Below, one piece after another: positions 30,964 through 45,938 of a DNA stretch of 64,000 nucleotides (the stretch's first letter is position 1; every line of letters starts with the position of its first letter). Position numbers and translations under genes: made by a program. This DNA comes from Escherichia coli. Its GTDB lineage: Bacteria; Pseudomonadota; Gammaproteobacteria; Enterobacterales; Enterobacteriaceae. The stretch is from the NCBI RefSeq assembly GCF_013315695.1, contig NZ_CP054353.1. One strand, 5' to 3'. Below the pieces are notes generated by a model. It made no database searches, had not been told where the DNA came from, and saw only the letters and a list, made by a program, of their open reading frames with translations.

Positions 30964-33900
30964 ATGAAAAGAATGTTAATCAACGCAACTCAGCAGGAAG
31001 AGTTGCGCGTTGCCCTTGTAGATGGGCAGCGTCTGTATGACCTGGATATCGAAAGTCCAGGGCACGAGCAGAAAAAGGCAAACATCTACAAAGGTAAAAT
31101 CACCCGCATTGAACCGAGTCTGGAAGCTGCTTTTGTTGATTATGGCGCTGAACGTCACGGTTTCCTCCCACTAAAAGAAATTGCCCGCGAATATTTCCCT
31201 GCTAACTACAGTGCTCATGGTCGTCCCAACATTAAAGATGTGTTGCGTGAAGGTCAGGAAGTCATTGTTCAGATCGATAAAGAAGAGCGCGGCAACAAAG
31301 GCGCGGCATTAACCACCTTTATCAGTCTGGCGGGTAGCTATCTGGTTCTGATGCCGAACAACCCGCGCGCGGGTGGCATTTCTCGTCGTATCGAAGGCGA
31401 CGACCGTACCGAATTAAAAGAAGCACTGGCAAGCCTTGAACTGCCGGAAGGCATGGGGCTTATCGTGCGCACCGCTGGCGTCGGCAAATCTGCTGAGGCG
31501 CTGCAATGGGATTTAAGCTTCCGTCTGAAACACTGGGAAGCCATCAAAAAAGCCGCTGAAAGCCGCCCGGCTCCGTTCCTGATTCATCAGGAGAGCAACG
31601 TAATCGTTCGCGCATTCCGCGATTACTTACGTCAGGACATCGGCGAAATCCTTATCGATAACCCGAAAGTGCTCGAACTGGCACGCCAGCATATCGCTGC
31701 ATTAGGTCGCCCGGATTTCAGCAGCAAAATCAAACTGTACACCGGCGAGATCCCGCTGTTCAGCCACTACCAGATCGAGTCACAGATTGAGTCCGCCTTC
31801 CAGCGTGAAGTTCGTCTGCCATCCGGTGGTTCCATTGTTATCGACAGCACCGAAGCGTTAACCGCCATCGACATCAACTCCGCACGCGCGACCCGCGGCG
31901 GCGATATCGAAGAAACCGCGTTTAACACCAACCTCGAAGCTGCCGATGAGATTGCTCGTCAGCTGCGCCTGCGTGACCTCGGCGGCCTGATTGTTATCGA
32001 CTTCATCGACATGACGCCAGTACGCCACCAGCGTGCGGTAGAAAATCGTCTGCGTGAAGCGGTGCGTCAGGACCGTGCGCGTATTCAAATCAGCCATATT
32101 TCTCGCTTTGGCCTGCTGGAAATGTCCCGTCAGCGTCTGAGCCCATCACTGGGTGAATCCAGCCATCACGTCTGCCCGCGCTGCTCCGGTACCGGTACCG
32201 TGCGTGACAACGAATCGTTGTCGCTCTCTATTCTGCGTCTGATCGAAGAAGAAGCGCTGAAAGAGAACACTCAGGAAGTTCACGCCATTGTTCCTGTGCC
32301 AATCGCGTCTTACCTGCTGAATGAAAAACGTTCTGCAGTGAATGCGATTGAAACTCGTCAGGACGGCGTGCGCTGTGTGATTGTGCCAAACGATCAGATG
32401 GAAACCCCGCACTACCATGTGCTGCGCGTGCGTAAAGGGGAAGAAACTCCAACCTTAAGCTACATGCTGCCGAAGCTGCATGAAGAAGCGATGGCGCTGC
32501 CGTCTGAAGAAGAGTTCGCTGAACGTAAGCGTCCGGAACAACCTGCGCTGGCAACCTTTGCCATGCCGGATGTGCCGCCAGCTCCAACCCCAGCTGAACC
32601 TGCCGCGCCTGTTGTAGCCCCAGCACCTAAAGCTGCAACGGCAACACCAGCATCTCCTGCACAACCAGGGTTGTTGAGCCGCTTCTTCGGCGCACTGAAA
32701 GCGCTGTTCAGCGGTGGTGAAGAAACCAAACCGGCCGAGCAACCAGCACCGAAAGCAGAAGCGAAACCGGAACGTCAACAGGATCGTCGCAAGCCTCGTC
32801 AGAACAACCGCCGTGACCGTAATGAGCGCCGCGACTCCCGTAGTGAACGTACAGAAGGCAGCGATAATCGCGAAGAAAACCGTCGTAATCGTCGCCAGGC
32901 ACAGCAGCAGACTGTCGAGACGCGTGAGAGCCGTCAGCAGGCTGAGGTAACGGAAAAAGCGCGTACCAGCGACGAGCAGCAAGCGCCGCGTCGTGAACGT
33001 AGCCGCCGCCGTAACGATGATAAACGTCAGGCGCAACAAGAAGCGAAGGCGCTGAATGTTGAAGAGCAATCTGTTCAGGAAACCGAACAGGAAGAACGTG
33101 TACGTCCGGTTCAGCCGCGTCGTAAACAGCGTCAGCTCAATCAGAAAGTGCGTTACGAGCAAAGCGTAGCCGAAGAAGCGGTAGTCGCACCGGTGGTTGA
33201 AGAAACTGTCGCTGGCGAACCAATTGTTCAGGAAGCGCCAGCTCCACGCACAGAACTGGTGAAAGTCCCGCTGCCAGTCGTAGCGCAAGCTGCACCAGAA
33301 CAGCAAGAAGAGAACAATGCCGATAACCGTGACAACGGTGGCATGCCGCGTCGTTCTCGCCGCTCGCCTCGTCACCTGCGCGTGAGTGGTCAGCGTCGTC
33401 GTCGCTATCGTGACGAGCGTTATCCAACCCAATCGCCAATGCCGTTGACCGTAGCGTGCGCGTCTCCGGAACTGGCCTCTGGCAAAGTCTGGATCCGCTA
33501 TCCGATTGTACGTCCACAAGATGTACAGGTTGAAGAGCAGCGCGAACAGGAAGAAGTACAAGTGCAGCCGATGGTGACTGAGGTCCCTGTCGCCGCCGCT
33601 GTCGAACCGGTTGTTAGCGCACCGGTTGTTGAAGAAGTGGCTGAAGTCGTAGAAGCCCCCGTTCACGTTGCCGAACCGCAACCGGAAGTGGTTGAAACGA
33701 CGCATCCTGAAGTAATTGCCGCCGCGGTAACTGAACAGCCGCAGGTGATTACCGAGTCTGATGTTGCCGTAGCCCAGGAAGTTGCAGAACACGCAGAACC
33801 GGTAGTTGAACCGCAGGAAGAGACGGCAGATATTGAAGAAGTTGCCGAAACTGCTGAGGTTGTGGTTGCTGAACCTGAAGTTGTTGCTCAACCTGCCGCG

Positions 33901-34149
33901 CCAGTCGTCGCTGAAGTCGCAGCAGAAGTTGAAACGGTAGCCGCGGTTGAACCAGAGATCACCGTTGAGCATAACCACGCTACCGCGCCAATGACGCGCG
34001 CTCCGGCACCGGAATATGTTCCGGAGGCACCGCGTCACAGTGACTGGCAGCGCCCTACTTTTGCCTTCGAAGGCAAAGGTGCCGCAGGTGGTCATACGGC
34101 AACGCATCATGCCTCTGCCGCTCCTGCGCGTCCGCAACCTGTTGAGTAA
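30964..34149 (+). CDS. rne: Ribonuclease E
   Basis: 1061-aa [33 protein letters not shown]...; catalytic N-terminal half and Arg-rich/acidic low-complexity C-terminal scaffold. Confidence 0.98.
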
Positions 34150-34168
34150 TAATTAGCTCAAGTAATCA

Positions 34169-34196
34169 AGCCCTGGTAACTGCCAGGGCTTTTTTA
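34169..34196 (+). terminator. rne intrinsic terminator
   Basis: Stem gccctgg/ccagggc followed by tttttattt, 20 bp after the rne stop. Confidence 0.75.
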
Positions 34197-34222
34197 TTTC
34201 AGGGGTAGCATCTTTGCTGTAA

Positions 34223-34251
34223 TGACATTAGCGTTACATGTGCTGTATAAT
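34223..34251 (+). promoter_or_regulatory. Putative sigma-70 promoter of the toxin-antitoxin operon with overlapping inverted repeats
   Basis: TGACAT (34223..34228), 17-bp spacer, TATAAT (34246..34251); palindromes TAATGaCATTA, ACATGT and ATAATTAT in and around it. Confidence 0.45.
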
Positions 34252-34282
34252 TATCATCCACGCAAAGCCGAAGGATATATTT

Positions 34283-35067
<785 letters not shown>

Positions 35068-35083
35068 TTCGTTATGTCTCATG

Positions 35084-35118
35084 CAAAAAAATGCCCGCCC
35101 CGGCGATCCCAGAGCAGG
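35084..35118 (-). terminator. Probable flgL terminator
   Basis: On the minus strand an imperfect GC-rich hairpin (ugccugc...gcgggca) followed by U7; the plus strand has no U-tract. Confidence 0.35.
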
Positions 35119-35161
35119 CAGACAAAACATACCCAGTTTCATGATATGTTTTAAAGCGAAA

Positions 35162-36115
35162 TTATTTGTTGAGCTGGAAGAGCGACAATCCCTGCATATC
35201 GGTAAATGCTTTATACGACGCCTGCAATGCCGTTTGCTGCATGATGTAAGATGAAATAGTTGCATTCCAGTCCACATCAACCAGATCGCTCATCTGCTGC
35301 GTTTGCCCTAAAGCGCGATCGCTACCTAATGAATCCAGCGACTCCAGTTCGTTCAGCTGCGTGCCTAATTCCGCGCGAACAGTCAGCACATTGTTCAGCG
35401 AGTTTTTCAGTCCGCGGTTGGTTTTATCCAGTGCCGCAGCGGCGGTTTCTTTATCCGCTTCGCTATCCGCGACCGGCGTTTTCAGGGCTGCGATGGCGCT
35501 ATCCAGCATGGCAAAAAGATTGGTTTCAGAAGCGCTACCGTCTGGTTCCGCTACCGCGTTGCTGGTAATACTGTCGAAAATTTTGTCACCCGTGTGCCCT
35601 ATCACCATCGAACGCGAAGCATCGACCTGTTGTTTAATACTTTCTGCTCCGCCTTCGTATTTGCCATCCGCCTCGCTAAACGGTGCGGATTCTGTTTTAT
35701 AACCGGCAAAAATGTAGCGCCCGTTACCGTCAGTGGTGTTCGCCAGATTCAGCAACTGGTCACGAAGCCCCTGAATATCCGTAGCCAGCGAGGCCCGGTC
35801 ATCGTCACTCAAGGTGCCATTGCTGGCGTAGACAATTTTTTCCTGAGCATTCTGGATAGCGGTGGTGACCTGGCTAAGTACACTCTCTTCCAGTGACACT
35901 TTTTGAGTGGCGAAAGTACGCGCCAGCGTGTACTGGCTGTTTTGCGCCTGTGCCTGGGAGAGAACAACAGCTTGTGATGCAGCAATGGGATCATCTGAAG
36001 AGTTAACGACTCGCTTACCCGTCGACATCTGTTCACCGTACTTCATCCATTCTGCCTGAGAATTGGTGATGCCGCGCATGTTTTGCTGGTACATCATCTG
36101 GGTACTGAAACGCAT
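35162..36115 (-). CDS. flgL: Flagellar hook-filament junction protein FlgL
   Basis: 317-aa ORF MRFSTQMMYQQNMRGITNSQAEW... Confidence 0.95.
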   Translation of the reverse strand: MRFSTQMMYQQNMRGITNSQAEWMKYGEQMSTGKRVVNSSDDPIAASQAVVLSQAQAQNSQYTLARTFATQKVSLEESVLSQVTTAIQNAQEKIVYASNGTLSDDDRASLATDIQGLRDQLLNLANTTDGNGRYIFAGYKTESAPFSEADGKYEGGAESIKQQVDASRSMVIGHTGDKIFDSITSNAVAEPDGSASETNLFAMLDSAIAALKTPVADSEADKETAAAALDKTNRGLKNSLNNVLTVRAELGTQLNELESLDSLGSDRALGQTQQMSDLVDVDWNATISSYIMQQTALQASYKAFTDMQGLSLFQLNK

Positions 36116-36126
36116 TTTATCTCCCC

Positions 36127-37770
36127 TTAGCGAATGTTAATCAGCGCATCAAAAATCGCGTTTGCCGTCTGCAGAACCTGCGCATTCGCGAGGTAATACT
36201 GCTGAAAACGTTGCAGATTTCCGTACTCCTCATCGAGATTGACACCGGAAATCGACTGCTGCTGATTGGAAAGCTGCGTCACCACATTACCTTGCGTGGC
36301 GCTACTGGTTTTCAACGTCGCGGTTTTATTACCGATATCACTCACTAACGAGGCATAAGCGTCGTTAAAGGATTTCGCACCGCCCACCGTTTTACTGTTG
36401 CTTTGCAGATCCAGCAGGGCCTGACCGTTGCGGTTGTCGCTATCACCCGCATCTTCTGCGCTCGCCATGGCGATTTTCGCTTCGTCAGTGATTAATACAT
36501 CCATGTTGACGATGGCGTCACTTACCGGTTTCAACGTGAAGCTGTCGTTAACGGCAGGCGTTCCTGTAAACGTCAACTCCAGACCATCAAATGCCACTTT
36601 ACCGTTGGCATCCGGCGTCACCGTAAAAGTGGTATTGCTGGCAAGGCGGGTGACCTGCCACTGATTATTATCGAACGAGATTTTGTAATCTGTCGCCAGT
36701 ACCGCGGAGGCATCAGTTACCGTTGCACCGATCGAAACGTCACCTTTGTTTTTCGTGTTTTGCAGAACCGCGGGCTTACCGATAGCAAAGAAATCTTCAC
36801 CGGCATCGCCGTTAGCATCAAATCCGGCTTTGTGTTGGGTGTTGAAAGCCTCGGCAAATGCCAGCGCCAGTTGTCCGAGCGTATTACGCGTCTGGTCCAG
36901 ATCCTGAGAACGGAATGTCAGAATGCCGCCCAGCGACCCGGTATTCAGTAATTTCTCCGGGATCTCAATATTGCCAGCCGTCCCATCAATATAAGCGACA
37001 GTCGTACGAGAAGGGTCGGCGCTGGAAGGAACTGCCGCCAGCTGCCGCGCCGTACTTCCCTGAACCAGTGAGTAGCCATTGGCCATCGTGATGTTATAAG
37101 TGCCACCATCCTGAACGCTAACTTCTACGCCAACAATCTGGTTTAATTCACTCACCAGTTGATCGCGTTGATCCAGCAGATTGTTAGGTGACGCCCCTGC
37201 CCCCACGCCTGTCAGACGCGAGATTTGATCGTTCAGGCTGGCGATTTGTTTAGCGTAATTGTTGATCTGATCAACGCTGGCACCTATCGCGATATTGACC
37301 TGTTTGTCCTGGTCGCGCAGATATTGATCGGTGGTTTTAAACTGATTCACCAACCCTTCTGATTTTCCAATCAGCGCCTGGCGCGCTGCCGGGTCTTCCG
37401 CGTTACTCACCAGCGTTTGCAGGCTGGTGAAGAAATCCTGCATCTGTGTTGCCAGCGAAGAGGTACTGGTGGAGAGCATATTGTCGATTTTCGACATCTG
37501 CTCATAGCGGGCAGTCAGGCCGCTACTTTGCGTCTGCGCAGCACGTAACTGGTTGGTAATAAACGCATCATACTCACGCTGCACACCAGAAACGTAGACG
37601 CCATTGCCAACCCAGCCGCCAGCGCCCAACGTGCTATTGGCCTGCGCCATAATAGTGGTTTGGCGGGTATATCCGGCAACGTTATAGCTAGAGATATTAT
37701 TACTTGCCGTATTTAACGCCGCCTGGGCCGCGTTCAGTCCGCTCATGGCGTTATTGATCAAGCTGGACAT
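36127..37770 (-). CDS. flgK: Flagellar hook-associated protein 1 FlgK
   Basis: 547-aa ORF MSSLINNAMSGLNAAQAALNTASNNISSYNVAGYTRQ... Confidence 0.95.
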   Translation of the reverse strand: MSSLINNAMSGLNAAQAALNTASNNISSYNVAGYTRQTTIMAQANSTLGAGGWVGNGVYVSGVQREYDAFITNQLRAAQTQSSGLTARYEQMSKIDNMLSTSTSSLATQMQDFFTSLQTLVSNAEDPAARQALIGKSEGLVNQFKTTDQYLRDQDKQVNIAIGASVDQINNYAKQIASLNDQISRLTGVGAGASPNNLLDQRDQLVSELNQIVGVEVSVQDGGTYNITMANGYSLVQGSTARQLAAVPSSADPSRTTVAYIDGTAGNIEIPEKLLNTGSLGGILTFRSQDLDQTRNTLGQLALAFAEAFNTQHKAGFDANGDAGEDFFAIGKPAVLQNTKNKGDVSIGATVTDASAVLATDYKISFDNNQWQVTRLASNTTFTVTPDANGKVAFDGLELTFTGTPAVNDSFTLKPVSDAIVNMDVLITDEAKIAMASAEDAGDSDNRNGQALLDLQSNSKTVGGAKSFNDAYASLVSDIGNKTATLKTSSATQGNVVTQLSNQQQSISGVNLDEEYGNLQRFQQYYLANAQVLQTANAIFDALINIR

Positions 37771-37803: not shown

Positions 37804-37835
37804 TTATCGGCAGCGACCCGCCGGACTTGAGTTAT
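37804..37835 (-). promoter_or_regulatory. Sigma-28 (class 3) promoter for flgKL
   Basis: Perfect -10 GCCGATAA on the minus strand (plus-strand ttatcggc at 37804..37811); -35 element is weak (TCAA). Confidence 0.5.
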
Positions 37836-45911: not shown

Positions 45912-45938
45912 TAAAGATTACCCATCCCTTGCCGATAA
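45912..45938 (+). promoter_or_regulatory. Sigma-28 (class 3) promoter for flgMN
   Basis: TAAA-N15-GCCGATAA consensus match (taaagattacccatcccttgccgataa) 44 bp upstream of flgM. Confidence 0.7.

Follow-up and report, generated by a model that had tools for sequence, protein, structure and literature searches.

The DNA examined here lies between rne and flgL on the E. coli chromosome, in a window (the whole stretch that was analysed, 64,000 nucleotides) that is 100% identical to E. coli SMS-3-5. The rne gene is read on the plus strand and ends at 34149. It is followed on the same strand by a two-gene toxin-antitoxin (TA) module, which converges on flgL and flgK, both read on the minus strand. 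The stop codons of the toxin gene (TAG, 35065-35067, plus strand) and of flgL (35164-35162, minus strand) enclose a gap of 94 bp at 35068-35161. The initial annotation of this stretch, made from the letters alone, had placed the gap exactly, together with the A-tract on its plus strand (A7, 35085-35091) and the GC-rich sequence that follows the A7. The features of the locus are as follows, in order of position.

34168-34200, plus strand: rne intrinsic terminator, with a 10-bp perfect stem (34168-34191) followed by T6ATTT; the left edge of the cassette adjoins it.
34201-35082, plus strand: accessory TacAT-type cassette of 882 bp, delimited by alignment to the K-12-type locus, where it replaces a spacer of ~64 bp.
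34219-34251, plus strand: promoter-like site (ATGACA, 18 nt, TATAAT; 11/12) with the palindrome GTAATG-N7-CGTTAC over the -35 hexamer.
34283-34576, plus strand: DUF1778/TacA-family antitoxin, 97 aa (RefSeq WP_001110446.1).
34573-35067, plus strand: GNAT acetyltransferase toxin, TacT type, 164 aa (RefSeq WP_000613626.1).
35068-35084, no strand assigned: junction between the toxin stop and the FlgO 3′ end, 17 nt, of which 35068-35082 are cassette bases.
35085-35162, minus strand: FlgO sRNA, the processed flgL 3′UTR, 75-78 nt (K-12 alignment, published primer and EPEC annotation).
35085-35091, minus strand: U7 tract at the end of FlgO (A7 on the plus strand), from the sequence and the terminator scan; the 3′ end of FlgO as annotated in EPEC maps to 35085.
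35092-35120, minus strand: terminator hairpin of flgL/FlgO, 12 bp including three G·U pairs, with a 5-nt loop (consensus scan and folding).
35123-35153, minus strand: 5′ stem-loop of FlgO, A/U-rich, with an 11-bp stem (MFE and centroid folds).
35162-36115, minus strand: flgL, the parent mRNA of FlgO (ORF and RefSeq annotation).
35268-35345, plus strand: candidate Rho loading region, the C-richest and G-poorest untranslated toxin-strand stretch, with a C/G ratio of 2.0 (98th percentile) and 15 YC dinucleotides (96th).
36127-37770, minus strand: flgK (annotation).
37804-37830, minus strand: sigma-28-type promoter motif upstream of flgK, TCAAGTCC-N11-GCCGATAA, with a perfect -10 and a -35 with 3 mismatches.

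The flgL terminator and FlgO have already been described, and the TA module, itself annotated, is one of a well-studied family. The arrangement in which they meet is an ordinary one, and a regulatory consequence of it is only speculative.

An accessory TacAT-type cassette between rne and flgL

By homology, the module is a TacAT-type GNAT/DUF1778 type II toxin-antitoxin. The toxin is 73.5% identical to chain A of PDB entry 7AK7 (E = 7.7e-76) and the antitoxin matches chain C of the same entry (E = 1.4e-45), a complex that we take to be TacAT2 of Salmonella. More distant matches include TacT (5FVJ), TacT3 (6G96), and KacT and AtaT-type entries. As in the Salmonella TacAT modules, the antitoxin gene precedes the toxin gene, with a 4-nt overlap (ATGA) of the antitoxin stop and the toxin start, and a palindrome lies over the promoter. 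The module in the window differs from them in sitting on the E. coli chromosome at a fixed place between rne and flgL, and its toxin activity and autoregulation are predictions from sequence. As a TacAT-type toxin it would act by acetylating aminoacyl-tRNA and be neutralised by the antitoxin. The imperfect palindrome over the -35 hexamer is likely the operator bound by the antitoxin, and the TA promoter is presumably autorepressed. The palindrome is kept as CGTAATG-N7-CGTTACG in Klebsiella and Salmonella cassettes of only ~70% nucleotide identity (comparison loci L003 and L004, 1500-1533). Nucleotide homology to these cassettes, at 70-72% over 34219-35049, takes in the promoter (TATAAT or TATACT), the palindrome and both genes, and there is none beyond the toxin.

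Homology to cassette-less genomes is lost at 34200/34201 and picks up again at 35083 (GCAAAAAAATGCCC...), so that the cassette stops 2 nt short of the FlgO 3′ end. A search of the cassette ends for direct repeats or target-site duplications found none. The complete cassette is present in 685 of 5,426 complete E. coli genomes (12.6%), always at one chromosomal place, and the junction between toxin and FlgO is intact in the same 685. Including a partial copy in strain HS-02 there are 686 matches, 681 of them at 99% identity or more. Among the carriers is EPEC E2348/69, whose TA proteins are identical to those of the window; K-12, BL21, O157:H7 and Nissle 1917 are without it. In a divergent E. 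coli lineage (~95% identity) the cassette is absent and a homologous short spacer is present, so that the most parsimonious history is one in which the cassette was inserted in exchange for the spacer. It would thus have been acquired in the place of the short rne-flgL spacer in the ~13% of E. coli that now carry it.

Outside E. coli, a scan of one genome per bacterial species recovered relatives of the toxin at ~70% identity or less, scattered over the Proteobacteria in unrelated contexts. The same scan found the toxin-flgL junction in no other species, and no other Escherichia or Salmonella species representative matched; as the scan needs exact 8-residue peptide words, its list is patchy and missed the Salmonella and Klebsiella homologues. 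The scattered relatives point to wide horizontal spread of such toxins, and the patchy species distribution fits a horizontal acquisition of the cassette. Toxins 60-71% identical to that of the window occur in alpha-, beta- and gammaproteobacteria, for example in Mesorhizobium, Acidiphilium, Thiobacillus and Chimaeribacter (comparison loci L008-L056).

The reverse history, in which the cassette would be ancestral and the K-12 spacer a decayed toxin 3′ end, was rejected as unsupported in view of the divergent lineage with its short spacer and no cassette. Local alignment of the K-12 spacer to the toxin end scored 17, no better than chance (shuffle mean 16.6). In an end-anchored global alignment 8 of 2,000 shuffles were as good as the real pair, a comparison that was picked post hoc. 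This likeness, though suggestive, is probably due to chance, since the divergent lineage has the spacer too; it could instead be microhomology used in the replacement event. The K-12 spacer (comparison locus L001, 704-766) and the last 70 nt of the toxin gene (34998-35067) both end in AAATAG right before GCAAAAAAA.

A RefSeq toxin pseudogene is found in E. coli HS-02 (comparison locus L007, ~1260-1790), where the toxin stop is joined to GCAAAAAAA without the 15 nt TTCGTTATGTCTCAT. This 'remnant' cassette was considered as a decay intermediate and rejected; its homopolymer-rich, low-complexity sequence was taken as a long-read assembly artefact.

The flgL 3′UTR and the sRNA FlgO

The 94-bp interval is more than the site of a terminator: it is the flgL 3′UTR, which encodes the known sRNA FlgO. 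What had been read as empty intergenic DNA is therefore a described regulatory RNA gene. Aligned to a K-12-type genome, the FlgO region (35083-35162) shows a single substitution, at 35102, which amounts to one of the 78 bases of FlgO. The published flgO cloning primer SM041, 5′P-ATTTCGCTTTAAAACATATCATG, matches the minus strand exactly from 35162, where the flgL stop codon ends. The annotation of EPEC E2348/69 (Pearl Mizrahi et al., Sci Adv 2021, PMC8550237) has flgL at 1223545-1224498 and, immediately after it, flgO at 1224501-1224575; these flgO coordinates map to 35159..35085 of the window. FlgO adjoins the flgL stop codon on its 3′ side and lies on the same strand as flgL.

In E. coli K-12, FlgO is a sigma-28-dependent, Hfq-bound RNA seen as a doublet of ~75 nt, which is processed from the flgL mRNA and has no primary transcript of its own (Melamed et al., eLife 2023, PMC10578931). 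The same study placed it among the RNAs most enriched on Hfq, found very few RIL-seq targets for it and no motility phenotype on its overexpression, and also reported its detection in EPEC (PMC10578931). The FlgO of the window shares with that of K-12 its locus, strand, two-hairpin architecture and U7 tail. The surroundings differ: beyond the FlgO U-tract K-12 has a non-coding spacer of ~64 bp and then the rne terminator, whereas in the window a convergent toxin gene ends 17 nt away. In EPEC E2348/69, where flgO is already annotated, the junction of toxin and FlgO is identical in layout to that of the window.

A scan of 33800-35600 with Rfam 15 (E <= 1) gave two chance-level matches, both on the rne terminator, and none in the 94 bp. 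We take this to mean that FlgO has no Rfam family, so that the null result is not counter-evidence. RefSeq has no feature annotated over the FlgO region in the records examined. Since Rfam gave no match and RefSeq is unannotated there, a reader of the sequence alone saw just a gap.

From 5′ to 3′, FlgO consists of a single-stranded 5′ end, the A/U-rich stem-loop (35153..35123), the terminator hairpin and the U7 tract. On its own, the stem-loop folds at -7.1 kcal/mol on the minus strand and at -4.5 kcal/mol on the plus strand. The consensus terminator scan reported the hairpin on the minus strand from 35120 to 35092, with 12 pairs (8 G-C and 3 G·U), a loop of 5 nt and TTTTTTT (U7) after it. This hairpin tops the eight terminator-like matches in the 3 kb scanned, for which shuffles gave 3.8 ± 1.7. 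By itself it folds at -22.1 kcal/mol, and the entire 94 nt of the minus strand fold at -31.4 kcal/mol (z = -3.7), with none of 200 dinucleotide shuffles folding as well. The initial annotation had proposed an imperfect minus-strand hairpin followed by U7 as the flgL terminator, and the folding bears this out; the word 'imperfect' is true only of the three G·U wobbles, as the stem is free of mismatches and bulges. FlgO thus ends in a Rho-independent terminator with a poly-U tail (12-bp hairpin and U7), which would both end flgKL transcription and form the Hfq-binding 3′ end of the sRNA.

The terminator is one-way, ending transcription in the direction of flgL and offering no terminator in the direction of the toxin. 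Where the minus strand has its three G·U pairs, the plus strand has C·A mismatches, and the plus-strand hairpin folds at -8.7 kcal/mol with GACAAAACAT directly 3′ of it and no U-tract. The bases 3′ of the hairpin are U7 on the minus strand as against GACAAAAC on the plus strand. Folded as a whole, the plus strand of the region reaches -18.3 kcal/mol (z = -1.4), which is no better than shuffles. Only one flank of the hairpin, at 35085-35091, carries an A/U tract, which is not the pattern of a bidirectional terminator. With the K-12 base at 35102, the minus-strand hairpin gains a fourth G·U pair and the plus-strand hairpin a fourth A·C mismatch. The asymmetry that the wobble pairs create between the strands points to the minus-strand RNA as the functional one.

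The FlgO terminator is present in 5,425 of the 5,426 complete E. coli genomes. In E. coli YZ22PE165, of the divergent lineage (comparison locus L057, 2520-2550), one U·G pair of its stem is replaced by C-G and another by a G·G mismatch, so the stem is not strictly maintained.

The motif upstream of flgK is one of two sigma-28-type matches in the window, where 0.52 were expected. The second and better match, at 45912-45938 on the plus strand (TAAAGATT-N11-GCCGATAA, 1 mismatch), presumably belongs to another late flagellar operon of the flg cluster. A weak sigma-70-like site (TTGTCG, 16 nt, AATAAT; 9/12) lies at 35161-35188 on the minus strand, in the end of flgL, and points into FlgO; the scan gave three such sites where 2.9 were expected, no more than chance would.

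The fate of transcripts leaving the toxin gene

The best explanation for the locus, which we consider fairly probable on its sequence features, combines the FlgO 3′UTR and its one-way terminator with a cassette that has no terminator of its own and with a Rho stop in antisense flgL. RNA polymerase leaving the toxin gene would cross the FlgO region, and the TA mRNA would thereby gain a 3′ extension fully complementary to FlgO. Rho would then stop the toxin-strand RNA within about the first 100-500 nt of antisense flgL, on untranslated C-rich RNA, with head-on collisions with flgKL polymerases assisting when flgKL is active.

The lack of a clean plus-strand terminator after the toxin gene, noted in the initial annotation, was confirmed. 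In the toxin direction a hairpin of -8.7 kcal/mol may form, with three C·A mismatches and followed by GACAAAACAU; the U-tract of an intrinsic terminator is absent, as the hairpin gives way to GACAAAACAUACCCA. A scan of the plus strand for a hairpin plus T-run was empty up to 200 nt from the toxin stop. Two plus-strand terminator-like sites further on within flgL, at 35432-35446 (-7.4 kcal/mol) and at 35915-35934, were set aside as weak and of chance frequency.

The same lack is seen among relatives. Among 43 related toxin loci of other bacteria with enough downstream sequence, 33 have no hairpin plus T-run within 200 nt downstream, and most of the other ten are weak. The homologous Klebsiella and Salmonella cassettes have no terminator-like site after the toxin. 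The cassette carries a promoter and operator but no terminator, which is usual for its relatives, and TacAT-type modules evidently depend on their surroundings for termination, as far as these loci indicate.

Toxin-strand transcripts probably cross the FlgO region, then, although the region itself could stop or trim them. According to a preprint (Wang et al., bioRxiv 10.1101/2022.10.23.513370), which cites Ju et al. 2019, convergent E. coli gene pairs often share termination zones that have a non-canonical appearance in one direction or both and depend on head-on collisions. In this reading the FlgO terminator region would be effectively bidirectional: weak plus-strand hairpins, collision, or a 3′ exonuclease trimming back to the hairpins would leave the TA mRNA with an end in 35092-35160 and no need for Rho. 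The window resembles the bidirectional terminators of these studies (Ju et al. 2019; Wang et al., bioRxiv 10.1101/2022.10.23.513370) in having a single hairpin region between a convergent pair, and its plus strand does still form two hairpins, of -8.7 and -4.5 kcal/mol. It differs from them in its asymmetry, with a U-tract on one side only and wobbles that make the hairpin strand-specific. Three mismatches interrupt the plus-strand hairpin, which has no U-tract after it, the regional fold of that strand (z = -1.4) is shuffle-like, and collision needs simultaneous transcription of flgKL, which is restricted by growth phase. We therefore regard a stop within the FlgO region as unlikely.

A Rho stop beyond FlgO, the reading preferred here, agrees with the composition of the RNA. 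No start codon with a Shine-Dalgarno-like sequence was found on the plus strand after the toxin stop, so the toxin-strand RNA is predicted to be untranslated. At 35068-35145 (plus strand) the C/G ratio is 1.53 with 14 YC dinucleotides, around the 90th percentile of all 78-nt windows, and a ratio of 1.86 at 35588-35665 (plus strand) falls at the 97th percentile. The candidate loading region at 35268-35345 lies between these two stretches. RNA that is untranslated, C-rich and G-poor is the usual substrate of Rho. The toxin-strand RNA has these properties, with the C/G ratio being a weak predictor of Rho sites. Because the RNA would be both untranslated and C-rich, a Rho stop within a few hundred nucleotides may be expected. 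Peters and co-workers reportedly found in 2012 that antisense transcription that goes untranslated is suppressed in E. coli by Rho together with NusG.

The initial annotation had gone further, proposing that read-through from the TA promoter would run antisense into both flgL and flgK and so link expression of the module to late flagellar gene output. Part of this stands: as the toxin has no terminator, antisense transcription into the 3′ end of flgL is to be expected. The first antisense target would be FlgO, met before the flgL coding sequence, an identity that had been missed, as had the restriction of the arrangement to a minority of E. coli. Read-through as far as flgK is unlikely, with flgK more than 1 kb away and the RNA untranslated and C-rich. 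The link to late flagellar output is speculative. The features of the sequence are against it, the EPEC read counts of the module are low, and with the cassette in only 12.6% of genomes any link to motility would be lineage-specific.

These counts come from EPEC E2348/69, where mean normalised values (two value sets in a DESeq2-format table) were 57/35 for the toxin, 27/12 for the antitoxin and 2037/536 for rne. The flagellar genes were off under the conditions of that RNA-seq (flgL ~7, flgO <1), so the counts do not describe the state in which both are expressed. As the TA promoter is presumably autorepressed and the read counts are low, an effect on flgL or flgK is probably negligible in normal growth. 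The near-consensus promoter (11/12) could nevertheless be strong when derepressed, and read-through could then matter under stress.

In its strong form, the proposed link would have TA-promoter transcripts run far into flgL and flgK and lower late flagellar output through collision, a long antisense RNA or both, so that motility would be coupled to activation of the module. The plus strand has no intrinsic terminator to prevent this, and the near-consensus promoter could fire strongly once the antitoxin is degraded. There is also a synthetic precedent in which a one-directional terminator combined with an antisense promoter represses the upstream gene, and a stronger antisense promoter gives proportionally more repression (Brophy and Voigt 2016, PMC4731013). 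The layout is that of the window: a gene, a one-way terminator and a convergent promoter whose polymerases can pass the terminator backwards. In the window, however, the convergent promoter is 840 bp off and serves a translated operon of its own; it is presumably autorepressed, with Rho-prone untranslated RNA following. Because repression scales with promoter strength in the synthetic system, a low-level and presumably autorepressed TA promoter is unlikely to affect flgL or flgK much. Against such far read-through stand also the nature of the toxin-strand RNA as a Rho substrate, untranslated and C-rich; the distance of over 1 kb from the toxin stop to the beginning of flgK; and the low read counts of the module in EPEC. 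The flgKL genes are highly transcribed from flagellar promoters when they are on, and it would then be mostly the weaker polymerases of the TA strand that collisions abort. The literature searched yielded no account of RNA antisense to flgL or of the locus tags of the module, and 87% of E. coli are without the cassette, with no known motility difference attributed to it. A coupling of this kind is, in our view, distinctly improbable.

FlgO and the toxin mRNA as a possible antisense pair

If the toxin mRNA extends through FlgO, as our preferred reading with a Rho stop in antisense flgL would have it, the two RNAs could also act on one another. FlgO and the 3′ extension of the toxin mRNA would then form a functional cis-antisense pair, with abundant FlgO in motile cells triggering cleavage of the duplex and then 3′-to-5′ decay of the TA mRNA over its toxin-distal part, or with FlgO being titrated by the TA mRNA as a sponge. 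FlgO peaks at the transition to stationary phase. In the case of read-through, perfect complementarity would extend over as many as 78 nt, and the toxin gene is the promoter-distal one, with its stop only 17 nt from the overlap. FlgO itself is highly Hfq-enriched and has almost no conventional targets, and the overexpression that gave no phenotype was carried out in K-12, which has no cassette (PMC10578931). On the other side, FlgO is present in 5,425 of 5,426 genomes with or without the cassette, so that its primary function cannot be pairing with the TA mRNA, and the junction looks like an accident of insertion beside a terminator. The EPEC RIL-seq entries listed contain no chimeras with the TA genes, under conditions in which flagella are off. 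Among the entries listed for E2348C_1173, E2348C_1174, E2348C_1175 and flgO in the EPEC RIL-seq and RNA-seq supplements, there are only expression rows and annotation lines. We regard a functional pairing as very unlikely.

Were the overlap functional, the toxin mRNA would be the first clear partner of FlgO and an incoming cassette would have been wired into a host sRNA, and nothing that we examined indicates so. Such pairing would link the flagellar programme to a persistence-type toxin in ~13% of E. coli.

Any read-through from the highly expressed rne gene would enter the TA promoter region in strains with the cassette, and in cassette-less strains it would run straight into FlgO in the antisense direction.
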